Shown: in pieces, positions 5,954-17,536 of the stretch
How the letters are laid out: each line of letters opens with the position of its first letter
How positions within the stretch are numbered: position 1 is the first letter of the stretch
NCBI GenBank assembly: GCA_963758525.1
Contig: CAVWVQ010000001.1
Location: 192,001-256,000, forward strand
Direction: 5' to 3'
Length of the DNA stretch: 64,000 nt
DNA from: an uncultured Phycisphaerales bacterium
GTDB taxonomy: Bacteria; Planctomycetota; Phycisphaerae; Tepidisphaerales; Tepidisphaeraceae
The notes under the pieces: generated by a model
What the model saw: the letters and a program-made list of their open reading frames with translations, nothing else
Told to the model about the DNA's origin: nothing
Databases searched by the model: none
Position numbers and translations under genes: made by a program

Positions 5954-7035
5954 TCAAATTTCCCGCGCAGCGAGCCGATCGAGCGGGCTGGTTACCGCCG
6001 TCGCGGGCTTATTCATCACGTGCGTGTAGATCATGGTGGTCTTGAGGTTGGCGTGCCCGAGCAGTTGCTGCACCTGGCGGATGTCATAGCCTGCTTCGAG
6101 CAGATGCGTGGCAAAACTGTGGCGAAAAGTGTGCGGCGAAACACGCTTGCTCACCCCGGCGCGCCGTGCCGCCGCGGCGATCGTTCGTCCCAAAACCCCC
6201 GGATGCGCATGCCAGCGAAACCCGCGGCCCTGCTCGTCGCGACGAAGCGTCGCGCTGGAAAAGACAAACTGCCAGCGCCAATCCACCTCCGCCGACGATA
6301 TTTTGTTGGCCACCGGATCGGGCAGCGCCACGTACCCGCCTCCCTTGACCACATCGCGCCCGTGAACGGTTCGCACCCGCCGGCACCGCTCCGCCAGGGC
6401 CGCGCGCGATGACGTCGGGAGCATCACCATTCGGTCCTTCTGCCCCTTTCCGTCGCGGATGATGATCTGGCCCCGATCAAAGTCGATGTCGCGCAGCCGC
6501 AGCGTGCAGCATTCCATCACCCGCATCCCCGTCCCATAGAGCAGTTCCGCCATCAGCCGATGCATCGATCCCGAGCGGATCGCGTCGAGCACCACCGCGG
6601 TCTCATCGGCACTGAGGACCGTCGGCACCCGCGCCGGCCGCCGCGAGCGCTCCGCGGCGAATCTGCCCAGATGATCCTCCGGCACCTCGCCCGCGAGAAC
6701 CTGCTTATAAAGAAAGACAATCGCGTTGGTCGCCTGATTCTGGGACGAAGCGCTCAGGCGTCGATCGCGCGCCAGGTGGGTCAAAAATGCCTCGACGTCC
6801 GCCGCTCCCAGTTCCCGCGGATGGCGCCAGCGGACCCCCGAGGTCGACGGCGCAACCATCGCCGCCGACGAATCATCCATGGCAAGGAACTGATCGATCG
6901 CGTCCAGCGGCTTGGTTTCAGCCGGCTGGCGCAGTAGCGCAGAAACTCTCGAATCCATCGCTGATAACACTCAACGGTTTTCCGCGCCAGGCGCAGCCGG
7001 GCCGCCACCTCGCCGACGCGCTCCAGCAACATCAT
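5954..7035 (-). CDS. intI: Integron integrase (tyrosine recombinase) with a -1 frameshift near 6930
   Basis: LLYGTGMRVMEC, RDGKGQKDR, IntI-specific insertion (WRWQFVF...RWH), HTFRHSFATHLLEAGYDIRQVQQLLGH...TTMIYTHV. The N-terminus (CYQRWIREFLRY) is in another frame. Confidence 0.9.
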
Positions 7036-7042
7036 GCATCCT

Positions 7043-7113
7043 AACCTAGCGCATGAATTCGTCCTGTCAATATTCCGGCGATAGTTGACACAGGCTGCGA
7101 AAATAAAGATGAT
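7043..7113. promoter_or_regulatory. Candidate divergent PintI/Pc promoters
   Basis: Back-to-back TTGACA hexamers (7065-7070 on -, 7085-7090 on +), kept in the second copy. The minus-strand TTGACA-N16-TAGGTT lies just before the intI ATG. Confidence 0.45.
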
Positions 7114-7140
7114 TCTGGAACCGCGAGGGATTTCCTGTAA

Positions 7141-7180
7141 CCGCTATAGGGACCCCAGCGCGTGAGATTTGTAGTTCTCC
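7141..7180 (+). other. attI site, copy 1 (crossover G|TT at 7174-7176)
   Basis: Identity with the second copy ends exactly after gtagTT. The following GTTCTCCCGC complements GCGGGAGAAC at the end of cassette 1. Confidence 0.75.
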
Positions 7181-7196
7181 CGCACAGGCGCCTCCC

Positions 7197-9909: not shown

Positions 9910-10018
9910 GGAGAACCAGCCAATGCTGTGGACGGCCCCGCGTCGCGTCGAAAGCTTGTCTTTGGTATAGTGTCCCTCGGCGCGTCGCGTTGGCCGCCAC
10001 AGATTGTCATCCGTTGAA
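9910..10018 (+). repeat. attC site
   Basis: GGAGAAC...GTTGAA; dominant family. Confidence 0.85.
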
Positions 10019-11954
10019 ATCGGGGTAGGGAAGGCCGGTTTCCCGGCCTCCCCTCCCGCCGAACCGGACTGGCGGTTCTCCCGCATCCGGCTCTCCAGTC
10101 AGTGGGTTCCCGTTCGAGCGGGTTGACAGGCCAAGCGATGGGCTTGTAACAGCGAGAAAAGTCCCAGCTTGGCAAAGTATGCATTGGGCCAGCGGTAGTG
10201 GTCACGACCACCGCCACGTCCACGCCCGCCGTGGCGTCGCCGCAAGATGCTTCGCAGCCTCATACGGATCCACGCGTCCAGCGGAGCGAACGTCTCGCGT
10301 CGGCTGTGTTTGAAGTAGCCAAACCAGCCACGCAGCGTCTGATTGACCGTGCCGATGATGCAGACCATTCGAGTGCCGTTCCGACGTTGGGTCTTTTCAC
10401 GAATGGTGTCTTTGAGTTTCTTGAGGCTCTTGCTCCGGGGTTCTCTTTGACCTTGGCCAAAGTGATAGCCCAGGAAGTCGAAGCCCTTTTGTCGCTCATC
10501 GACGATTCGTGTCTTCTCCGGATGCAGCGTCAGACCGGCTTGCGCCGTCCATCGTTGCACCTCGGCCAGCGCCCGCTCGGCCTCCTCTTGGCTCTGACAC
10601 AGGATCACAAAGTCATCCGCGTAGCGCACCATCTGGAATCCCTGCCGGGCCATCAGATGGTCCAGCGGGTCCAGATAGACGTTACTCAGCAGTGGGCTGA
10701 GCACCGCGCCTTGCGGCGCGCCGGATGCGGGCGTCCACTGGTCCAGTCCTTCCAGCACGCCTTGCGTGAGGAATGATTCGATCAGTTTCAGCACTCGTCC
10801 GTCGGCCACCTTCTGGCTCACCCGCTCCATTAACTGCCGGTGCGGGATCGTGTCAAAGTAGCTTTTCAGATCCGCGTCTACCACGTACCGGTATCCGTCG
10901 TCCAAAAGTTTCTGCACGTGACGCAGCGCGTCTTTGCATCCCCTTCCGGGGCGAAAGCCGTAGCTGTGCTCGTGAAAGTCCTTCTCGAAGATCGGTTCCA
11001 GCACGTGACGCAGCGCGCCCTGAACCACGCGGTCCTGCACAGTCGGTATCCCCAGCGGTCGCCCCTGGGCGCTGCCGGGTTTGGGGATGTAGCACCGGCG
11101 GATCGCCTTGGGCCGATACGTCCCGGCCCTCAGTTCTTCCGTCAGATGCTCGATGTGCTTTTCCACATGGCGCTCGTACTGCTTCACCGTCACATGGTCC
11201 ACGCCTGCCGCTCCCTTGTTGGCCGCCACCTTACTCCATGACGACCAGAGGTTGCTGCGTTTGTAGACTTTATCAATCAGGCTGAACCAGATGCCTCCTT
11301 TGACCCCTTGTTCAAGGGCCTGCAACATGCGCGCTGTCCAGACCGATGGTTCCGCCCATGCCCATCGCGAGCCTGCGCCCGCGATGCGATGGGATTCTTC
11401 GGCTTGCTTAGCCCCGAGTCGGGGCACTCGCGCCGATTGTTGTTCCATTGGTCTATTCATCCCGCATCCACTTTCCTGCGTCCCTTGGCTCCACGCCCGT
11501 TAAGGCGTTTCGTCGCTACTACGGACGCTCTGACTCCTGCCCCGGCGGCTCTTCGACGCCGACTGGTTACGGCGTATGAACTCCGTTCGCTTTCCGGAAC
11601 AGGTCTCCCTGCTTCACGCACCAGCACTTCCAACCATTCCGACTCCAATCACCCTCACGGCCCCGGCATCGCTTTACGAGAGGCTCGTCGCCTCTCTGCA
11701 CGTTACCCTTCAGCTCACCGGGCTTCCCTTGAAAGATGCATCGCTCCCTCGCGGGTCTGGACTTCGCCACTTTTAGGCAGGCTCGTCACCGTTTCAGGCC
11801 GAATCGAGTTCACTTGTGTTTCGGACTGGTCGTTCACCTCCAGTTGCTCTCCACCTGGCCTCACGGCCACGCAGTTACTTTCAGTTACGGGCTGGAGAAC
11901 GCTATGCCCGGAGAGGACTTGCACCTCTCTATGCTGGTACGCTCGCAGGCGCAC
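10019..11954 (-). mobile_element. Group II intron, copy 1 (1936 nt)
   Basis: 5' GTGCG at 11954, domain V GAGCCGGATGCGGGAGAACCGCCAGTCCGGTTC (10061-10093), domain VI and 3' end ...CCTACCCCGAT, internal RT ORF. Confidence 0.92.
10099..11460 (-). CDS. ltrA: Group II intron reverse transcriptase/maturase, no endonuclease domain
   Basis: NKGAAGVD, RPLGIPTVQDRVVQ, SYGFRPGR, PQGAVLSPLLSN, RYADD, GFDFLGY, LRGWFGYF. Confidence 0.93.
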   Translation of the reverse strand: MNRPMEQQSARVPRLGAKQAEESHRIAGAGSRWAWAEPSVWTARMLQALEQGVKGGIWFSLIDKVYKRSNLWSSWSKVAANKGAAGVDHVTVKQYERHVEKHIEHLTEELRAGTYRPKAIRRCYIPKPGSAQGRPLGIPTVQDRVVQGALRHVLEPIFEKDFHEHSYGFRPGRGCKDALRHVQKLLDDGYRYVVDADLKSYFDTIPHRQLMERVSQKVADGRVLKLIESFLTQGVLEGLDQWTPASGAPQGAVLSPLLSNVYLDPLDHLMARQGFQMVRYADDFVILCQSQEEAERALAEVQRWTAQAGLTLHPEKTRIVDERQKGFDFLGYHFGQGQREPRSKSLKKLKDTIREKTQRRNGTRMVCIIGTVNQTLRGWFGYFKHSRRETFAPLDAWIRMRLRSILRRRHGGRGRGGGRDHYRWPNAYFAKLGLFSLLQAHRLACQPARTGTH

Positions 11955-12155
11955 CTAAACCGCTGCGCGGTGGGCAGTCGCCCGGCGTTCGGTACTCTAA
12001 GCATTGCCGCAGCCTTCTCTCTGACGAGCGATTATCAGTTTGCGACACCGCCTTTTTTGTCGGAAATATGCTATGAATACAATCCCCTGTAATAATGTAT
12101 GCGCACGGTTTTTCGGGCTAATTGCTCCCGTGCGTTGACGTCCAAAATCGGTTCA

Positions 12156-12242
12156 GTTCAACAGACTTTATCCAGCGTGCGACAAGCGGTCGCGAGTACC
12201 GGCGTCGCTGGCGCACGCTGGATAAAGTCCTCTTCGTTATCG
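12156..12242 (+). repeat. attC of the ORF-less, intron-carrying cassette
   Basis: GTTCAAC-agactttatccagcgtgcg...cgcacgctggataaagtc-ctcttc-GTTATCG. Confidence 0.85.
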
Positions 12243-12253
12243 GGCACAAGACG

Positions 12254-12811
12254 ATGCCGACCAGCGAATCCATGCGTGGTGCGTTCGCGACCGATGCGGG
12301 CATGCACGCCCTCTGGTCGCCGGAAGCCTTTTCGCAGGTCCATGACTACCAAACGTGGGCGCGGGAACTGGAGGATGACGCAGACATAACACGGCACATC
12401 TCGGCCGGCGACTTCGTCCCGATCAACATCGGCCGAGACATGGTCGCGGAGGTAGAGGTGCGTATGAGCAGCGCGGGCGTGGCTGCGCTTTCGGAGCGAG
12501 AGCGGCGATACCTGTTCCTCGCCTCCGAGCCGTACCGCTTCGTCTCCCGCGGGGCGGTCGCGGTCGGCGGAATCGAGCATGTTGCCGGGGAGGTGACGCG
12601 GTCGACACGGGCGATGCCGTTGGCGGCCGGGCAATGGTCCGTTGTCGTGCACATGATCAACTGGGACGACGAGCCGGGCGCATTCGCGTCCCCGGGCAAG
12701 CCGGCGGTGACGGCCCTGCCGGACTACCTGGTCACGATCAGTCCGGCCGTAAAAGGCCAAGCCTTCCGCGCCGAGCTGCGTACCTTCCCGCCGCCCGGAA
12801 GTGCCCGATAA
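12254..12811 (+). CDS. Cassette hypothetical protein, followed by only the left half of an attC (12806-12860)
   Basis: Cassette start GTTATCGGGCAC complements its end GTGCCCGATAAC. Confidence 0.65.
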   Translation: MPTSESMRGAFATDAGMHALWSPEAFSQVHDYQTWARELEDDADITRHISAGDFVPINIGRDMVAEVEVRMSSAGVAALSERERRYLFLASEPYRFVSRGAVAVGGIEHVAGEVTRSTRAMPLAAGQWSVVVHMINWDDEPGAFASPGKPAVTALPDYLVTISPAVKGQAFRAELRTFPPPGSAR

Positions 12812-12865
12812 CCAGCCAATGCTGTGGACGGCCCCGCGTCGCGTCGAAAGTTTGTCCTTGTTGAA

Positions 12866-13194
12866 ATCGGGGTAGGGAAGGCCGGTTTCCCGGCCTCCCC
12901 TCCCGCCGAACCGGACTGGCGGTTCTCCCGCATCCGGCTCTCCAGTCAGTGGGTTCCCGTTCGAGCGGGTTGACAGGCCAAGCGATGGGCTTGTAACAGC
13001 GAGAAAAGTCCCAGCTTGGCAAAGTATGCATTGGGCCAGCGGTAGTGGTCACGACCACCGCCACGTCCACGCCCGCCGTGGCGTCGCCGCAAGATGCTTC
13101 GCAGCCTCATACGGATCCACGCGTCCAGCGGAGCGAACGTCTCGCGTCGGCTGTGTTTGAAGTAGCCAAACCAGCCACGCAGCGTCTGATTGAC
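12866..13194 (-). pseudogene. 3' fragment of the same group II intron
   Basis: Matches the 3' end of copy 1 (from 10019) and is cut off at the RAYT element. Confidence 0.88.
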
Positions 13195-13195
13195 T

Positions 13196-13990
13196 GGTGA
13201 GGAAAGGGGGTCATCAGCCTTTTCTGCCGATTGAGTTGATGGTATGCTGGTGGAATGGCCCGTAAACCCCGATTCTCTCCCGGCGGTTTGGTGTATCACG
13301 TGATGAACCGCACGCCGGGACGCGTCGAATTGTTCGAAGCTTCCGGCGACTATCAGGCGTTTGAGAAGGTGCTGATTGAGGCGCTGGATCTGCATCGGGG
13401 GATGCGGCTCTGCGCCTATTGCCTGATGCCCAACCATTTCCATCTGGTGCTCTACCCCAAGACCGATGGCCAATTGTCCCGCTTCATGCAATGGCTCACC
13501 ATGACCCATGCCGCCCGCTGGCATGCCCATCGCCACAGCGTGGGGCGGGGGCATCTGTATCAGGGGCGGTTCAGGAGCTTTCCCATTCAGCAGGACGGCC
13601 ATTTTCTGAGCGTCTGCCGCTACGTTGAGCGGAACGCATTGCGGGCCAATCAGGTTGCCAAGGCACAGGACTGGCGGTGGAGCTCGCTATGGGCCCGGGA
13701 TGATCGCAGCAGTGCGATCGCTCCTTTTCTGGCTCCCTGGCCGGTGGAGAGGCCGGCCCGATGGGTGACGCTGGTGAACCGGGCGGAAAGCGAGGAGGAG
13801 CTTGCCGCGTTGCGCCGCGCGGTTGCCCGCGGCCGGCCGTACGGCGATGATCGCTGGTCGCAACGGACGGCGAAGGCGCTGGGCACGGAAAGCTCGTTGC
13901 GCCCGATCGGCCGTCCGAGCAAATCAAAGTCGCGAAAGAAAGGCTGATGGCGGATGCCGGAAGATTGGCTTATGACCCCCTTTCCTCACC
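13196..13990 (+). mobile_element. RAYT/IS200-like Y1 element with 24-bp terminal inverted repeats
   Basis: ggtgaggaaagggggtcatcagcc (13196-13219) and ggcttatgaccccctttcctcacc (13967-13990) are 23/24 complementary. Confidence 0.75.
13255..13947 (+). CDS. REP-associated tyrosine (HUH Y1) transposase
   Basis: YHVMNR, AYCLMPNHFHL, GHLYQGRFRS, YVERNALRA, WRWSS. Confidence 0.88.
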   Translation: MARKPRFSPGGLVYHVMNRTPGRVELFEASGDYQAFEKVLIEALDLHRGMRLCAYCLMPNHFHLVLYPKTDGQLSRFMQWLTMTHAARWHAHRHSVGRGHLYQGRFRSFPIQQDGHFLSVCRYVERNALRANQVAKAQDWRWSSLWARDDRSSAIAPFLAPWPVERPARWVTLVNRAESEEELAALRRAVARGRPYGDDRWSQRTAKALGTESSLRPIGRPSKSKSRKKG

Positions 13991-13994
13991 CGAC

Positions 13995-14280
13995 GCGCTC
14001 AGGCGTCGATCGCGCGCCAAGTGGGTCAAAAATGCCTCGACCTCCGCCGCTCCCAGTTCCCGCGGATGGCGCCAGCGGACCCCCGAGGCCGACGGCGCAA
14101 CCATCGCCGCCGACGAATCATCCATGGCAAGGAACTGATCGATCGCGTCCAGCGGCTTGGTTTCAACGGACTGGCGCAGTAGCGCAGAAACTCTCGAATC
14201 CATCGCTGATAGCACTCGACGGTGCTCCGCGCCAGGCGCAGCCGGGCCGCCACCTCGCCGACGCGCTCCAGCAACATCAT
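13995..14280 (-). pseudogene. intI: 5' fragment of a second intI copy
   Basis: Near-identical to 6750-7035 with several substitutions, truncated at the RAYT element. Confidence 0.85.
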
Positions 14281-14386
14281 GCATCCTAACCTAGCGCATG
14301 AATTCGTCCTGTCAATATTCTGGCGATGAGTTGACACATGTTGCGAAAATAAAGATGATTCTGGAACCGCGAGGGATTTCCTGTAA

Positions 14387-15210: not shown

Positions 15211-15312
15211 CCAGCCGTTGCTGTGGACGGGCCCGCGTCGCGAATATATTCTCTTCTAATCTGGCGGTTGTCAGCGCGTCGCGTTGCCCGCCACAGAACG
15301 TCATCCGTTGAA
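15205..15312 (+). repeat. attC site
   Basis: ACATAAC...GTTGAA. Confidence 0.85.
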
Positions 15313-17248
15313 ATCGGGGTAGGGAAGGCCGGTTTCCCGGCCTCCCCTCCCGCCGAACCGGACTGGCGGTTCTCCCGCATCCGGCTCTCCAGTCAGTGGG
15401 TTCCCGTTCGAGCGGGTTGACAGGCCAAGCGATGGGCTTGTAACAGCGAGAAAAGTCCCAGCTTGGCAAAGTATGCATTGGGCCAGCGGTAGTGGTCACG
15501 ACCACCGCCACGTCCACGCCCGCCGTGGCGTCGCCGCAAGATGCTTCGCAGCCTCATACGGATCCACGCGTCCAGCGGAGCGAACGTCTCGCGTCGGCTG
15601 TGTTTGAAGTAGCCAAACCAGCCACGCAGCGTCTGATTGACCGTGCCGATGATGCAGACCATTCGAGTGCCGTTCCGACGTTGGGTCTTTTCACGAATGG
15701 TGTCTTTGAGTTTCTTGAGGCTCTTGCTCCGGGGTTCTCTTTGACCTTGGCCAAAGTGATAGCCCAGGAAGTCGAAGCCCTTTTGTCGCTCATCGACGAT
15801 TCGTGTCTTCTCCGGATGCAGCGTCAGACCGGCTTGCGCCGTCCATCGTTGCACCTCGGCCAGCGCCCGCTCGGCCTCCTCTTGGCTCTGACACAGGATC
15901 ACAAAGTCATCCGCGTAGCGCACCATCTGGAATCCCTGCCGGGCCATCAGATGGTCCAGCGGGTCCAGATAGACGTTACTCAGCAGTGGGCTGAGCACCG
16001 CGCCTTGCGGCGCGCCGGATGCGGGCGTCCACTGGTCCAGTCCTTCCAGCACGCCTTGCGTGAGGAATGATTCGATCAGTTTCAGCACTCGTCCGTCGGC
16101 CACCTTCTGGCTCACCCGCTCCATTAACTGCCGGTGCGGGATCGTGTCAAAGTAGCTTTTCAGATCCGCGTCTACCACGTACCGGTATCCGTCGTCCAAA
16201 AGTTTCTGCACGTGACGCAGCGCGTCTTTGCATCCCCTTCCGGGGCGAAAGCCGTAGCTGTGCTCGTGAAAGTCCTTCTCGAAGATCGGTTCCAGCACGT
16301 GACGCAGCGCGCCCTGAACCACGCGGTCCTGCACAGTCGGTATCCCCAGCGGTCGCCCCTGGGCGCTGCCGGGTTTGGGGATGTAGCACCGGCGGATCGC
16401 CTTGGGCCGATACGTCCCGGCCCTCAGTTCTTCCGTCAGATGCTCGATGTGCTTTTCCACATGGCGCTCGTACTGCTTCACCGTCACATGGTCCACGCCT
16501 GCCGCTCCCTTGTTGGCCGCCACCTTACTCCATGACGACCAGAGGTTGCTGCGTTTGTAGACTTTATCAATCAGGCTGAACCAGATGCCTCCTTTGACCC
16601 CTTGTTCAAGGGCCTGCAACATGCGCGCTGTCCAGACCGATGGTTCCGCCCATGCCCATCGCGAGCCTGCGCCCGCGATGCGATGGGATTCTTCGGCTTG
16701 CTTAGCCCCGAGTCGGGGCACTCGCGCCGATTGTTGTTCCATTGGTCTATTCATCCCGCATCCACTTTCCTGCGTCCCTTGGCTCCACGCCCGTTAAGGC
16801 GTTTCGTCGCTACTACGGACGCTCTGACTCCTGCCCCGGCGGCTCTTCGACGCCGACTGGTTACGGCGTATGAACTCCGTTCGCTTTCCGGAACAGGTCT
16901 CCCTGCTTCACGCACCAGCACTTCCAACCATTCCGACTCCAATCACCCTCACGGCCCCGGCATCGCTTTACGAGAGGCTCGTCGCCTCTCTGCACGTTAC
17001 CCTTCAGCTCACCGGGCTTCCCTTGAAAGATGCATCGCTCCCTCGCGGGTCTGGACTTCGCCACTTTTAGGCAGGCTCGTCACCGTTTCAGGCCGAATCG
17101 AGTTCACTTGTGTTTCGGACTGGTCGTTCACCTCCAGTTGCTCTCCACCTGGCCTCACGGCCACGCAGTTACTTTCAGTTACGGGCTGGAGAACGCTATG
17201 CCCGGAGAGGACTTGCACCTCTCTATGCTGGTACGCTCGCAGGCGCAC
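15313..17248 (-). mobile_element. Group II intron, copy 2
   Basis: Same ends, same length and identical RT translation as copy 1. Confidence 0.92.
15393..16754 (-). CDS. ltrA: Group II intron reverse transcriptase/maturase
   Basis: Identical 453-aa translation to 10099-11460. Confidence 0.93.
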   Translation of the reverse strand: MNRPMEQQSARVPRLGAKQAEESHRIAGAGSRWAWAEPSVWTARMLQALEQGVKGGIWFSLIDKVYKRSNLWSSWSKVAANKGAAGVDHVTVKQYERHVEKHIEHLTEELRAGTYRPKAIRRCYIPKPGSAQGRPLGIPTVQDRVVQGALRHVLEPIFEKDFHEHSYGFRPGRGCKDALRHVQKLLDDGYRYVVDADLKSYFDTIPHRQLMERVSQKVADGRVLKLIESFLTQGVLEGLDQWTPASGAPQGAVLSPLLSNVYLDPLDHLMARQGFQMVRYADDFVILCQSQEEAERALAEVQRWTAQAGLTLHPEKTRIVDERQKGFDFLGYHFGQGQREPRSKSLKKLKDTIREKTQRRNGTRMVCIIGTVNQTLRGWFGYFKHSRRETFAPLDAWIRMRLRSILRRRHGGRGRGGGRDHYRWPNAYFAKLGLFSLLQAHRLACQPARTGTH

Positions 17249-17449
17249 CTAAACCGCTGCGCGGTGGGCAGTCGCCCGGTGTTCGGTACTCTAAGCATCG
17301 CCGCAGCCTTCTCTCTGACGAGCGATTATCAGTTTGCGACACCGCCTTTTTTGTCGGAAATATGCTATGAATACAATCCCCTATAATAATGTACGCGCGC
17401 GGTTTTTCGGGCTGATTGCTCCCGTGCGTTGACGTCCAAAATCGGTTCA

Positions 17450-17536
17450 GTTCAACAGACTTTATCCAGCGTGCGACAAGCGGTCGCGAGTACCGGCGTC
17501 GCTGGCGCACGCTGGATAAAGTCCTCTTCGTTATGC
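17450..17536 (+). repeat. attC of the second ORF-less cassette
   Basis: Same sequence as 12156-12238. Confidence 0.85.

Follow-up and report, generated by a model that had tools for sequence, protein, structure and literature searches.

The 64,000-nucleotide stretch of DNA analysed here (the window; contig CAVWVQ010000001.1 of assembly GCA_963758525.1, positions 192,001 to 256,000) derives from an uncultured Phycisphaerales bacterium and contains an integron, in which the integrase gene intI on the minus strand is followed by gene cassettes with attC sites of 96–102 bp. One place in the cassette array is taken by a non-coding unit, here termed the mini-element, which is interrupted close to its start by a group II intron lying antisense to the array. 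The origin of this unit, the enzyme that moves it and the manner in which the intron finds it are the subjects of this report. The locus comprises the following features, in window coordinates:

9910..10015, plus strand: canonical attC of the upstream gene cassette, with two extrahelical bases 6 bp apart on its bottom strand
10013..10018, plus strand: GTTGAA, the first six bases of the left end of the element, which on the minus strand form the 3′ exon of the intron (+1 = T, intron-binding site 3, IBS3)
10019..11954, minus strand: group II intron of 1936 nucleotides, antisense to the array and of a lineage that is unclassified and falls outside class C
10019..10095, minus strand: intron domains V and VI, with an AGC triad at 10092–10090 (Rfam RF00029, 50.5 bits, cut-off 40)
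10099..11460, minus strand: intron-encoded reverse transcriptase (RT)/maturase of 453 amino acids with a YADD motif (TIGR04416, 404.5 bits, cut-off 300)
11649, minus strand: candidate exon-binding site 3 (EBS3), an A at intron position 306 that pairs with exon +1
11772..11776, minus strand: EBS1, CUAAA, pairing with IBS1 TTTAG (covariation)
11955..11959, minus strand: IBS1, TTTAG, the end of the 5′ exon
11959..11971, minus strand: terIS-like subterminal mini-hairpin with a 5-bp stem and a GCA loop (bottom strand), 4 nucleotides before the splice site
11955..12236, plus strand: body of the mini-element, with the family left end, an interior of about 170 bp unrelated to the parent, and the right end
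12149..12162, plus strand: right inverted repeat CGGTTCAGTTCAAC, containing the R″-like GTTCAAC
12160..12238, plus strand: attC-like terminal hairpin with an unbroken 18-bp basal stem, no extrahelical base and an asymmetric spacer, ending in GTT

The intron's 5′ end, GUGCG, begins at 11954, and both intron ends conform to the group II pattern (5′ GUGYG, domain V/VI ending in AY). The initial annotation of the window had placed the intron at 10019–11954, in the last base step of GTTGAAC and with both GTT crossover triplets intact. This placement is confirmed by five intron-free copies of the unit on contig C2 of the source genome, which read GTTGAACTAAACCG uninterrupted and thus locate the intron between bases 6 and 7 of GTTGAAC; the two GTT triplets (10013 and 12236) are indeed intact around the intron-bearing unit. 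The right inverted repeat is complementary at 13 of 14 positions to the start of the unit, as the annotation had also seen, and the non-coding cassette, put there at ~290 bp, measures 287 bp without the intron. No cassette-spanning gene is present in its six-frame translation, although a plus-strand frame that includes the terminal hairpin is open over part of the length. A BLAST search for intron-free cassettes shows that the 282-nucleotide segment 3′ of the intron occurs in eight copies in the source genome, three with the intron and five without (all five in the C2 array). The possibility that the 200-bp segment next to the intron is intron RNA is thereby ruled out, as it occurs without the intron, and an intron copy on contig C3 has other sequence after 20 bases.

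Four full-length 1936-nucleotide copies of the intron, with 0–1 base differences and in the identical bond, are retrieved from the source genome (two in the window, one on contig C2 and one on contig C3), such that retrohoming into the site, as proposed earlier, recurs. All four lie within the ten element left ends of this genome (four filled, six empty), in which TTTAGT occurs 331 times. The copy on C3 resides in the left end of a longer type of element, from which the sequence of the unit diverges after 20 bases. Rfam detects three group II 3′ ends in the window, at 10019, 12866 and 15313, all on the minus strand and with an AGC triad; the latter two belong to further insertions, which the annotation had not listed:

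15307..17530, plus strand: second complete copy, consisting of intron 15313–17248 and mini-element 17249–17530, after another canonical attC
12860..13194, minus strand: third insertion, consisting of GTTGAA and the 329-nucleotide 3′ end of the intron (12866–13194), whose junction lies in a truncated attC's loop and which is cut short by an element of a REP-associated (repetitive extragenic palindrome) tyrosine transposase

Sequence variants suggest at least three insertions, plus one event in which a block of intron, unit and next gene was copied between contigs. Indeed, this block is found on two contigs with a shared variant and, over the initial 516 bases of the gene cassette, a single mismatch. 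Together with indels in several mobile genes, the block could be taken to mean that faulty assembly, or homologous recombination between arrays, gave rise to the repeats without transposition or retrohoming. We regard this as highly improbable, because the copies have different flanks and differ at 19 alignment columns, because the intron is present in two element types (the mini-element and the long-type left end on C3), and because an independent sequencing run of another sample contains the intron 5′ end and the unit in one 949-nucleotide contig (X1) with five differences. In the other samples, a further contig runs from an attC into an empty long-type left end. A single RNA run (word share 0.05) yielded only short, mostly diverged pieces of related introns and nothing bearing on splicing.

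The ends of the unit are those of a longer element. On contig C2 (274989–272503), a 2.5-kb element starts with the first 24 bases of the unit and has the same inverted repeat and type of terminal hairpin. It encodes Phage_integrase, Zn_Tnp_IS91 and Y2_Tnp domains (NF033538, 417.7 bits, cut-off 125), that is, a tyrosine recombinase and an IS91-type transposase, and the transposase retains the HUH and YxxxY motifs. Relatives were collected from 401 genomes of the phylum (32 matching at E ≤ 1e-40, 30 loci returned) and from 79 metagenome loci; here, as for the introns and sites below, counts run over related sequences that are not independent. The left end is present in 33 distinct loci, and in 33 of 33 the loop of the mini-hairpin is G..A on the bottom strand; such loops make very stable DNA hairpins. 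The right repeat is found in 56 of the 112 loci examined; many of the contigs stop short, and the ends of distant members differ. Among two-ended elements, the left 7-mer and the R″-like 7-mer are complementary at 6–7 of 7 positions in 22 of 23, including covarying variants (for example L141 and L169). The layout of left end, right inverted repeat and terminal hairpin is thus common to mini- and long elements and conserved across the family. On these comparisons, both the 13/14 inverted repeat and the apparent attC of the unit are end features of the recombinase-IS91 family.

The unit is short, non-coding and multicopy and shares both ends with an autonomous-type element, as a miniature would. 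An intron-free miniature with an interior 85% identical to that of the unit lies on a metagenome contig (L150) between a canonical attC and a full-length element. The earlier proposal of a landing-pad cassette dedicated to the intron is therefore not supported: the ends belong to an element with a tyrosine recombinase and IS91-type genes, the intron also occupies the long-type left end on C3, five of the eight units in the source genome are empty, and the copy on L150 is free of the intron. The interior of the mini-element has no match in 60 related genomes, five of which match the terminal hairpin alone. The left-end 16-mer occurs in 3 of 400 other genomes of the class, the left-end motif was found in none of the viral contigs searched, and the sole Rfam match to the unit, a sub-threshold miRNA hairpin, is regarded as chance.

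In the C2 array the unit stands in front of different genes and alternates with them almost strictly. Its interior is AT-rich and conserved, and the unit could have been kept and spread for a promoter or regulatory leader that it would provide to the following cassette, irrespective of how it arose. Cassettes without an open reading frame (ORF) that carry promoters are known (PMC8876359), and such a role would be compatible with a transposon origin. We nevertheless consider it quite unlikely, as no sigma-70-type promoter is found in the two unit copies scanned (a scan blind to other promoter types) and three of eight copies have a 1.9-kb intron in antisense orientation at their start.

Upstream of tnpA, the left end has a GTTC and a single subterminal palindrome, in agreement with terIS as described for IS801 and IS1294 (PMC13181058). 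This agreement, the intact HUH and YxxxY motifs, and the left-end junction at 12860, which follows CTTG, the IS91 target tetranucleotide, are what would be expected if the unit were a mini-IS91 generated by classical rolling-circle transposition, in which the Y2 transposase would cut and rejoin DNA at a tetranucleotide, the recombinase being accessory. However, all 13 reconstructed junction pairs are located at [G/A]|TT at the end of a long hairpin, and not at a tetranucleotide beside the ori-like motif. A conserved ori-like motif of the CCCCATAG type is present, but the junction lies ~100 nucleotides further on, at G|TT, whereas oriIS adjoins CTTG/GTTC; in the mini-element the motif is ~60 nucleotides from the right repeat rather than 8–10, and in L150 it is changed. 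In addition, L141 shows covariation of the core triplet at three places. We therefore see very little chance that rolling-circle transposition by itself explains the unit.

The crossover at which the unit begins is the R′ GTT (10013–10015) of the upstream attC, and the simplest alternative is that the unit is an ordinary ORF-less cassette, perhaps once captured from an IS91-type element, which is shuffled by IntI and serves the intron as a landing pad. Each of the eight copies is positioned at G|TT within an array and conforms to the R″/R′ cassette rule, seven standing after a canonical attC and one after another mini-element copy in tandem, as expected from integration of a circle, and an IS91-like element beside an attC has been termed 'a new gene cassette structure' (PMC9229058). 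We nonetheless hold this explanation to be unlikely. The terminal hairpin of the unit folds without the extrahelical bases of an attC: the basal helix is unbroken over at least 12 bp in 24 of 27 element-type terminal hairpins, whereas in 7 of 7 attCs of the array it comprises 6–8 bp and is broken by extrahelical bases. It is these bases that the I2 helix of IntI docks (PMC7790495), and their alteration shifts recombination 10- to 1000-fold (PMC7439510). The presence of the intron in long-element ends and the empty units also count against a unit dedicated to the intron.

The state of intI bears on the same question:

5954..7035, minus strand: intI, whose core, in the assembly, is read in another frame than the first ~36 codons (TIGR02249, 339 bits, cut-off 265)
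about 7041–7185: attI-like region adjoining intI

The gene passes the integron-integrase model, which favours shuffling by IntI, and is the sole intI above the cut-off in the source genome (91% complete), but it is frameshifted near its start as assembled. The start region is in frame in five of five assessable relatives and out of frame in both copies of the source genome, where the ~36 initial codons of the full gene and of a partial one (13985–14289, minus strand) are separated from the RHPREL region by ~80 additional bases and a change of frame. By its sequence, the integrase may be dead or use another start, or an assembly error may have recurred. Together with the missing extrahelical bases, the frame change makes the annotation's view that IntI moves the unit doubtful.

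The recombinase of the element itself is distinct from IntI, as it has no counterpart to about 40 residues of the I2 insertion region and scores 193 against the integron-integrase cut-off of 265. Most members of the element family lie outside attC sites: an attC-type fold is absent from 18 of the 25 left flanks of sufficient length and present in seven (two of these seven being element-type hairpins and one weak), with eight other flanks too short. A TAA at −10 to −6 is present in 9 of 12 non-attC flanks (classed by eye), compared with 1.7% of 706 background GTT sites, which fits recombinase core sites and not a bare tetranucleotide. We take these sites to resemble the dif- or attI-like core sites of tyrosine recombinases. 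On sequence evidence, we would rank the recombinase of the element first as the mover of the unit, IntI second and the transposase alone third.

The intron appears to recognise the left end through a short pairing and an adjacent hairpin. The annotation had proposed CUAAA at 11776–11772 as EBS1, and in a scan of all alignment columns exactly this segment covaries most strongly with exon positions −1 to −5. Over 46 distinct EBS1/exon pairs, drawn from 59 of 60 aligned introns that are not independent of each other, Watson–Crick pairs are formed in 46, 44, 43, 40, 32 and 16 cases at positions 1–6; over five positions, 205 of 230 are Watson–Crick, compared with 74 ± 7 in 5000 shuffles. The candidate EBS3 is complementary to exon +1 in 36 of 38 sites, a weak signal given that 30.6 are expected and +1 is C in 34 of 38. 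For exon −6 to −20, the same scan finds no stretch of columns covarying with them, as an EBS2 would give. Instead, the last 40 exon bases of 38 distinct sites fold with a mean of −9.6 kcal/mol, versus −4.2 (3′ exon, n = 36) and −4.6 kcal/mol (random flank, n = 37) in controls, and the z score is below −2 in 26 of 38. It is therefore likely, from the alignments, that the intron locates the left-end bond via the 5-bp EBS1 pairing and the adjacent DNA hairpin, a type of left-end target that related introns of Proteobacteria share.

An element-type hairpin precedes 7 of the 60 introns, the query and six other loci. At three loci (L084, L085 and L121) a recombinase gene, or a recombinase and an IS91 gene, adjoins the intron on the opposite strand; these introns have different EBS1 sequences, are inserted a base or two off and belong to another subclade, whereas the nearest relatives of the query (L009 and L014) follow REP-like hairpins. 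Retargeting to the recombinase-IS91 left end is thus likely, judging from the sequences, to have occurred more than once. On contig C3 (2745877–2745193, L006), a remnant of a second intron of the same lineage, in pieces 77–87% identical, lies beside a different hairpin; its exon ends in CTA and its EBS1 loop starts with UA, in agreement with the covariation rule. In two genomes of the phylum, we also note another group II intron directly in a recombinase-IS91 left end (L109), and an IIC-attC-like group II intron in an attC just upstream of such an end (L110).

The annotation also held that the intron is not of the IIC-attC class, and this is borne out. Relatives of the intron were taken as the best 80 of 323 from a scan of 185,579 genomes (51–67% identity). 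In a quick RT tree of 80 proteins, 7 of 87 having been dropped (four stray or partial frames, three near-duplicates), the query falls in a clade of 66 rows (Shimodaira–Hasegawa-like approximate likelihood ratio test, SH-aLRT, 99) separate from class C. A careful tree of 26 rows chosen from these 80 proteins gives the query clade a support of 100/99, and constraining the query with two C-attC references is rejected by the approximately unbiased (AU) test (p = 1.16e-5). The C-attC label of these two references (L210 and L211) rests on their tree position and on domain V, which is of the IIC type, unlike that of the query; class IIC is defined by a CGC triad and a shortened domain V (PMC1702495). 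The AGC triad proposed by the annotation is present in the RF00029 match of the query and in 42 of 42 domain V matches among the 60 aligned introns; the other 18 gave no usable 3′ end by pattern, three plasmid introns among them also being AGC. Membership of IIC-attC is therefore ruled out by triad, clade and AU test alike, and the insertion site differs as well.

Class labels for the trees were taken from Table S2 of Toro 2013 (PMC3552965) and rows of Table_3 of Miura 2022 (PMC8919778). With 1–2 references per class, long branches and classes A, B, g6, CL and ML absent, the RT of the query groups with no labelled member of the IIB-like classes D, E, F (g2–g5) and G (g1), and the EBS2–IBS2 pairing of these classes likewise has no counterpart in the column scan. 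An initial assignment to class G/g1 receives no support from the tree or from the label of the nearest named relative. This relative, the intron of Paraburkholderia aromaticivorans plasmid pBN3, shares the RT clade of the query and is labelled 'Unclassified' in Miura 2022 (PMC8919778), which places the query in that lineage. As read from the sequences, the lineage combines an IIB-like domain V with an IIC-like target rule.

Taken together, the comparisons make it probable that the 287-bp unit is a non-autonomous miniature of a recombinase-IS91 element, which was inserted at GTT in trans by the recombinase of its parent and received the intron at its left-end bond. Several observations weigh against this explanation or parts of it. 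The long element of the source genome has 13 gap positions relative to L150, and a single frame spans both of its genes, so that, from its sequence, it may be dead. The interior of the miniature is not a simple deletion of the parent and, besides the copies of the source genome, matched only L150 among the loci compared. All eight miniatures of the source genome lie in cassette arrays, as assembly driven by IntI would also give, and arm symmetry is modest, with at least 4 of 5 matches in 3 of 8 reconstructed non-attC sites versus 6 of 205 in the background. IntI is able to use secondary sites of the GTT type, such that the non-attC insertion sites are compatible with IntI as well. Lastly, the exon hairpin of the query itself is weak (z = −1.2).

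For a miniature moved by the parental recombinase, the following course can be envisaged. The element would leave as a circle with a folded bottom strand, likely made single-stranded by the HUH transposase, and this circle would be inserted at [G/A]|TT by the recombinase lacking I2. As the preferred sites in the source genome are attC ends, the element mimics an ORF-less cassette and alternates with gene cassettes. The intron belongs to an AGC-triad lineage that has an EBS1 and probably an EBS3, gives no signal of an EBS2 and is found shortly after a hairpin; it would then reverse-splice into the single-stranded bottom strand after that hairpin, much as class C introns do after terminators, and would thereby split the bottom-strand GTTC of the terIS-like end. 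A change in EBS1 may have retargeted it from the REP-like hairpins of its relatives to the element left end. Intron, mini-element and next gene cassette could subsequently have been copied as one DNA block, either because IntI skips the atypical site or through recombination. The result is a nested parasite, an intron within a mini-transposon within an integron.

A number of further arrangements are seen around these elements. In the window, the gene of the REP-associated tyrosine transposase (Pfam Y1_Tnp, 13197–13990; NF047646, 58 bits, below the cut-off of 80) lies between inverted repeats of ~17 bp and links the 329-nucleotide intron fragment to the partial intI and a second attI-like region; three further near-full-length copies of this element, 81–86% identical, are present in the source genome. 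The C2 array (278000–266000, L001) has an attI-like region 76% identical to that of the window and no adjoining intI; there, mini-elements alternate with gene cassettes, the first cassette being another short non-coding unit. In the same array (~267430–267330), the last bases of a canonical attC are replaced by the right end of a mini-element, a possible scar of its loss. At two places, window 12808–12860 and C2 ~275030–274989, the junction of an element left end lies in the central loop of a truncated attC instead of at R′.

On contig C3 (3035957–3033400, L002), element remnants flank a small cluster of cassettes: the orphan right end of a long element is followed by a single gene cassette and its attC, and then by a truncated left end filled by the intron. 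Both on C3 (101275–101362, L004) and in L151, the terminal hairpin occurs in a fully symmetric form at the 3′ end of ordinary sequence, in L151 directly after the stop codon of a gene, a placement reminiscent of an attC. By its sequence, this hairpin may be the inversion product of two elements, but it would provide a gene with an attC-like site. Elsewhere, a recombinase-IS91 element is inserted in an integron-integrase-like gene (L091), and a group of longer members of ~3.6 kb (L144–L147, L234 and L237) carries a second recombinase gene inside the left end, several with an identical ten bases before the crossover.

The distinction drawn here separates true ORF-less cassettes from look-alike miniature IS91-type transposons in integron arrays, the latter being likely to be taken for cassettes by cassette-finding programs. 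Target recognition is likewise defined for an intron lineage labelled 'unclassified', in which an IIB-like catalytic domain is combined with class-C-like hairpin targeting and a 5-nucleotide, target-dependent EBS1. Transposon ends would add a fourth type of target to homing sites, terminators and attC, the three given in PMC4424553. As a small natural substrate, filled and empty in one genome, the unit lends itself to the question of which enzyme moves recombinase-IS91 elements, and whether folded-strand recombination requires the I2 helix bears on the origin of attC. More tentatively, and as a possibility that we hold to be less likely than its opposite, recombinase-IS91 elements might be self-mobile cassettes that combine single-stranded DNA made by an HUH transposase with I2-less recombination of folded sites, the unit being their non-autonomous cassette and AGC introns having been retargeted to them several times. 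If so, single-strand recombination, described as exclusive to integron integrases (PMC7790495), would extend beyond these enzymes, and the elements would offer a living model for the ancestral attC/IntI pair.

In full-text searches, with most subscription papers and ISfinder outside their range, no listed title or opening of an abstract describes a miniature recombinase-IS91 element in an array or an intron homing to its end; bioRxiv 10.64898/2026.09.22.753630 does not mention IS91, attC or integrons. The closest known systems each share a part of the arrangement. ORF-less cassettes of Treponema, Vibrio and Xanthomonas (PMC8876359, PMC6557892) are likewise non-coding units between two array GTT crossovers, but those described there have a classical attC, whereas the unit has transposon ends, an atypical site and no sigma-70 promoter in the two copies scanned. 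ISShvi3 of a Shewanella integron, as described in PMC9229058, also combines an upstream tyrosine recombinase with a Y2 transposase, adjoins an attC and is cassette-like; here, in contrast, the hairpin is part of the element, has no extrahelical bases and is carried on an amplified 287-bp non-coding miniature that is the target of an intron.

With respect to the intron, the IIC-attC introns (S.ma.I2 type, found beside blaIMP-4 in NZ_CP028486 and NZ_KX863568; PMC3001079, PMC4424553, PMC8876359) are similar in lying antisense in the array, and no endonuclease domain was found in the RT/maturase of the query, as in theirs. They also resemble it in having a short EBS1, no EBS2, and a hairpin in place of IBS2 before the splice site. 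They differ in their CGC triad and RT clade, and they insert after the folded bottom strand of attC, at R″, rather than after an IS91-type 5-bp hairpin at the start of a unit. The premise that all integron introns are IIC is outdated, since the IIB introns UHB.I2 (CL1) and H.ha.F1/F2 (class E) occur in integrons or in clusters of attC sites lacking integrases (CALINs), one of them directly after an attC (PMC7923331). These are non-IIC introns in cassette arrays like the query, but have intron-encoded proteins of other classes, UHB.I2 is in the sense orientation, and the relevant parts of that paper give neither a defined target nor a mini-element. The nearest counterparts are the 'Unclassified' (U1–U3) introns of Miura 2022, of which U1 and U2 often follow terminators (PMC8919778); the passages and table rows of that work considered here contain no RNA anatomy, EBS1 rule or IS91-end target. 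Its pBN3 intron (NZ_CP022993:23112–24969), which shares the 100/99 RT clade with the query, is itself located in the left end of an integrase-IS91 element, one base from the site used in the mini-element.

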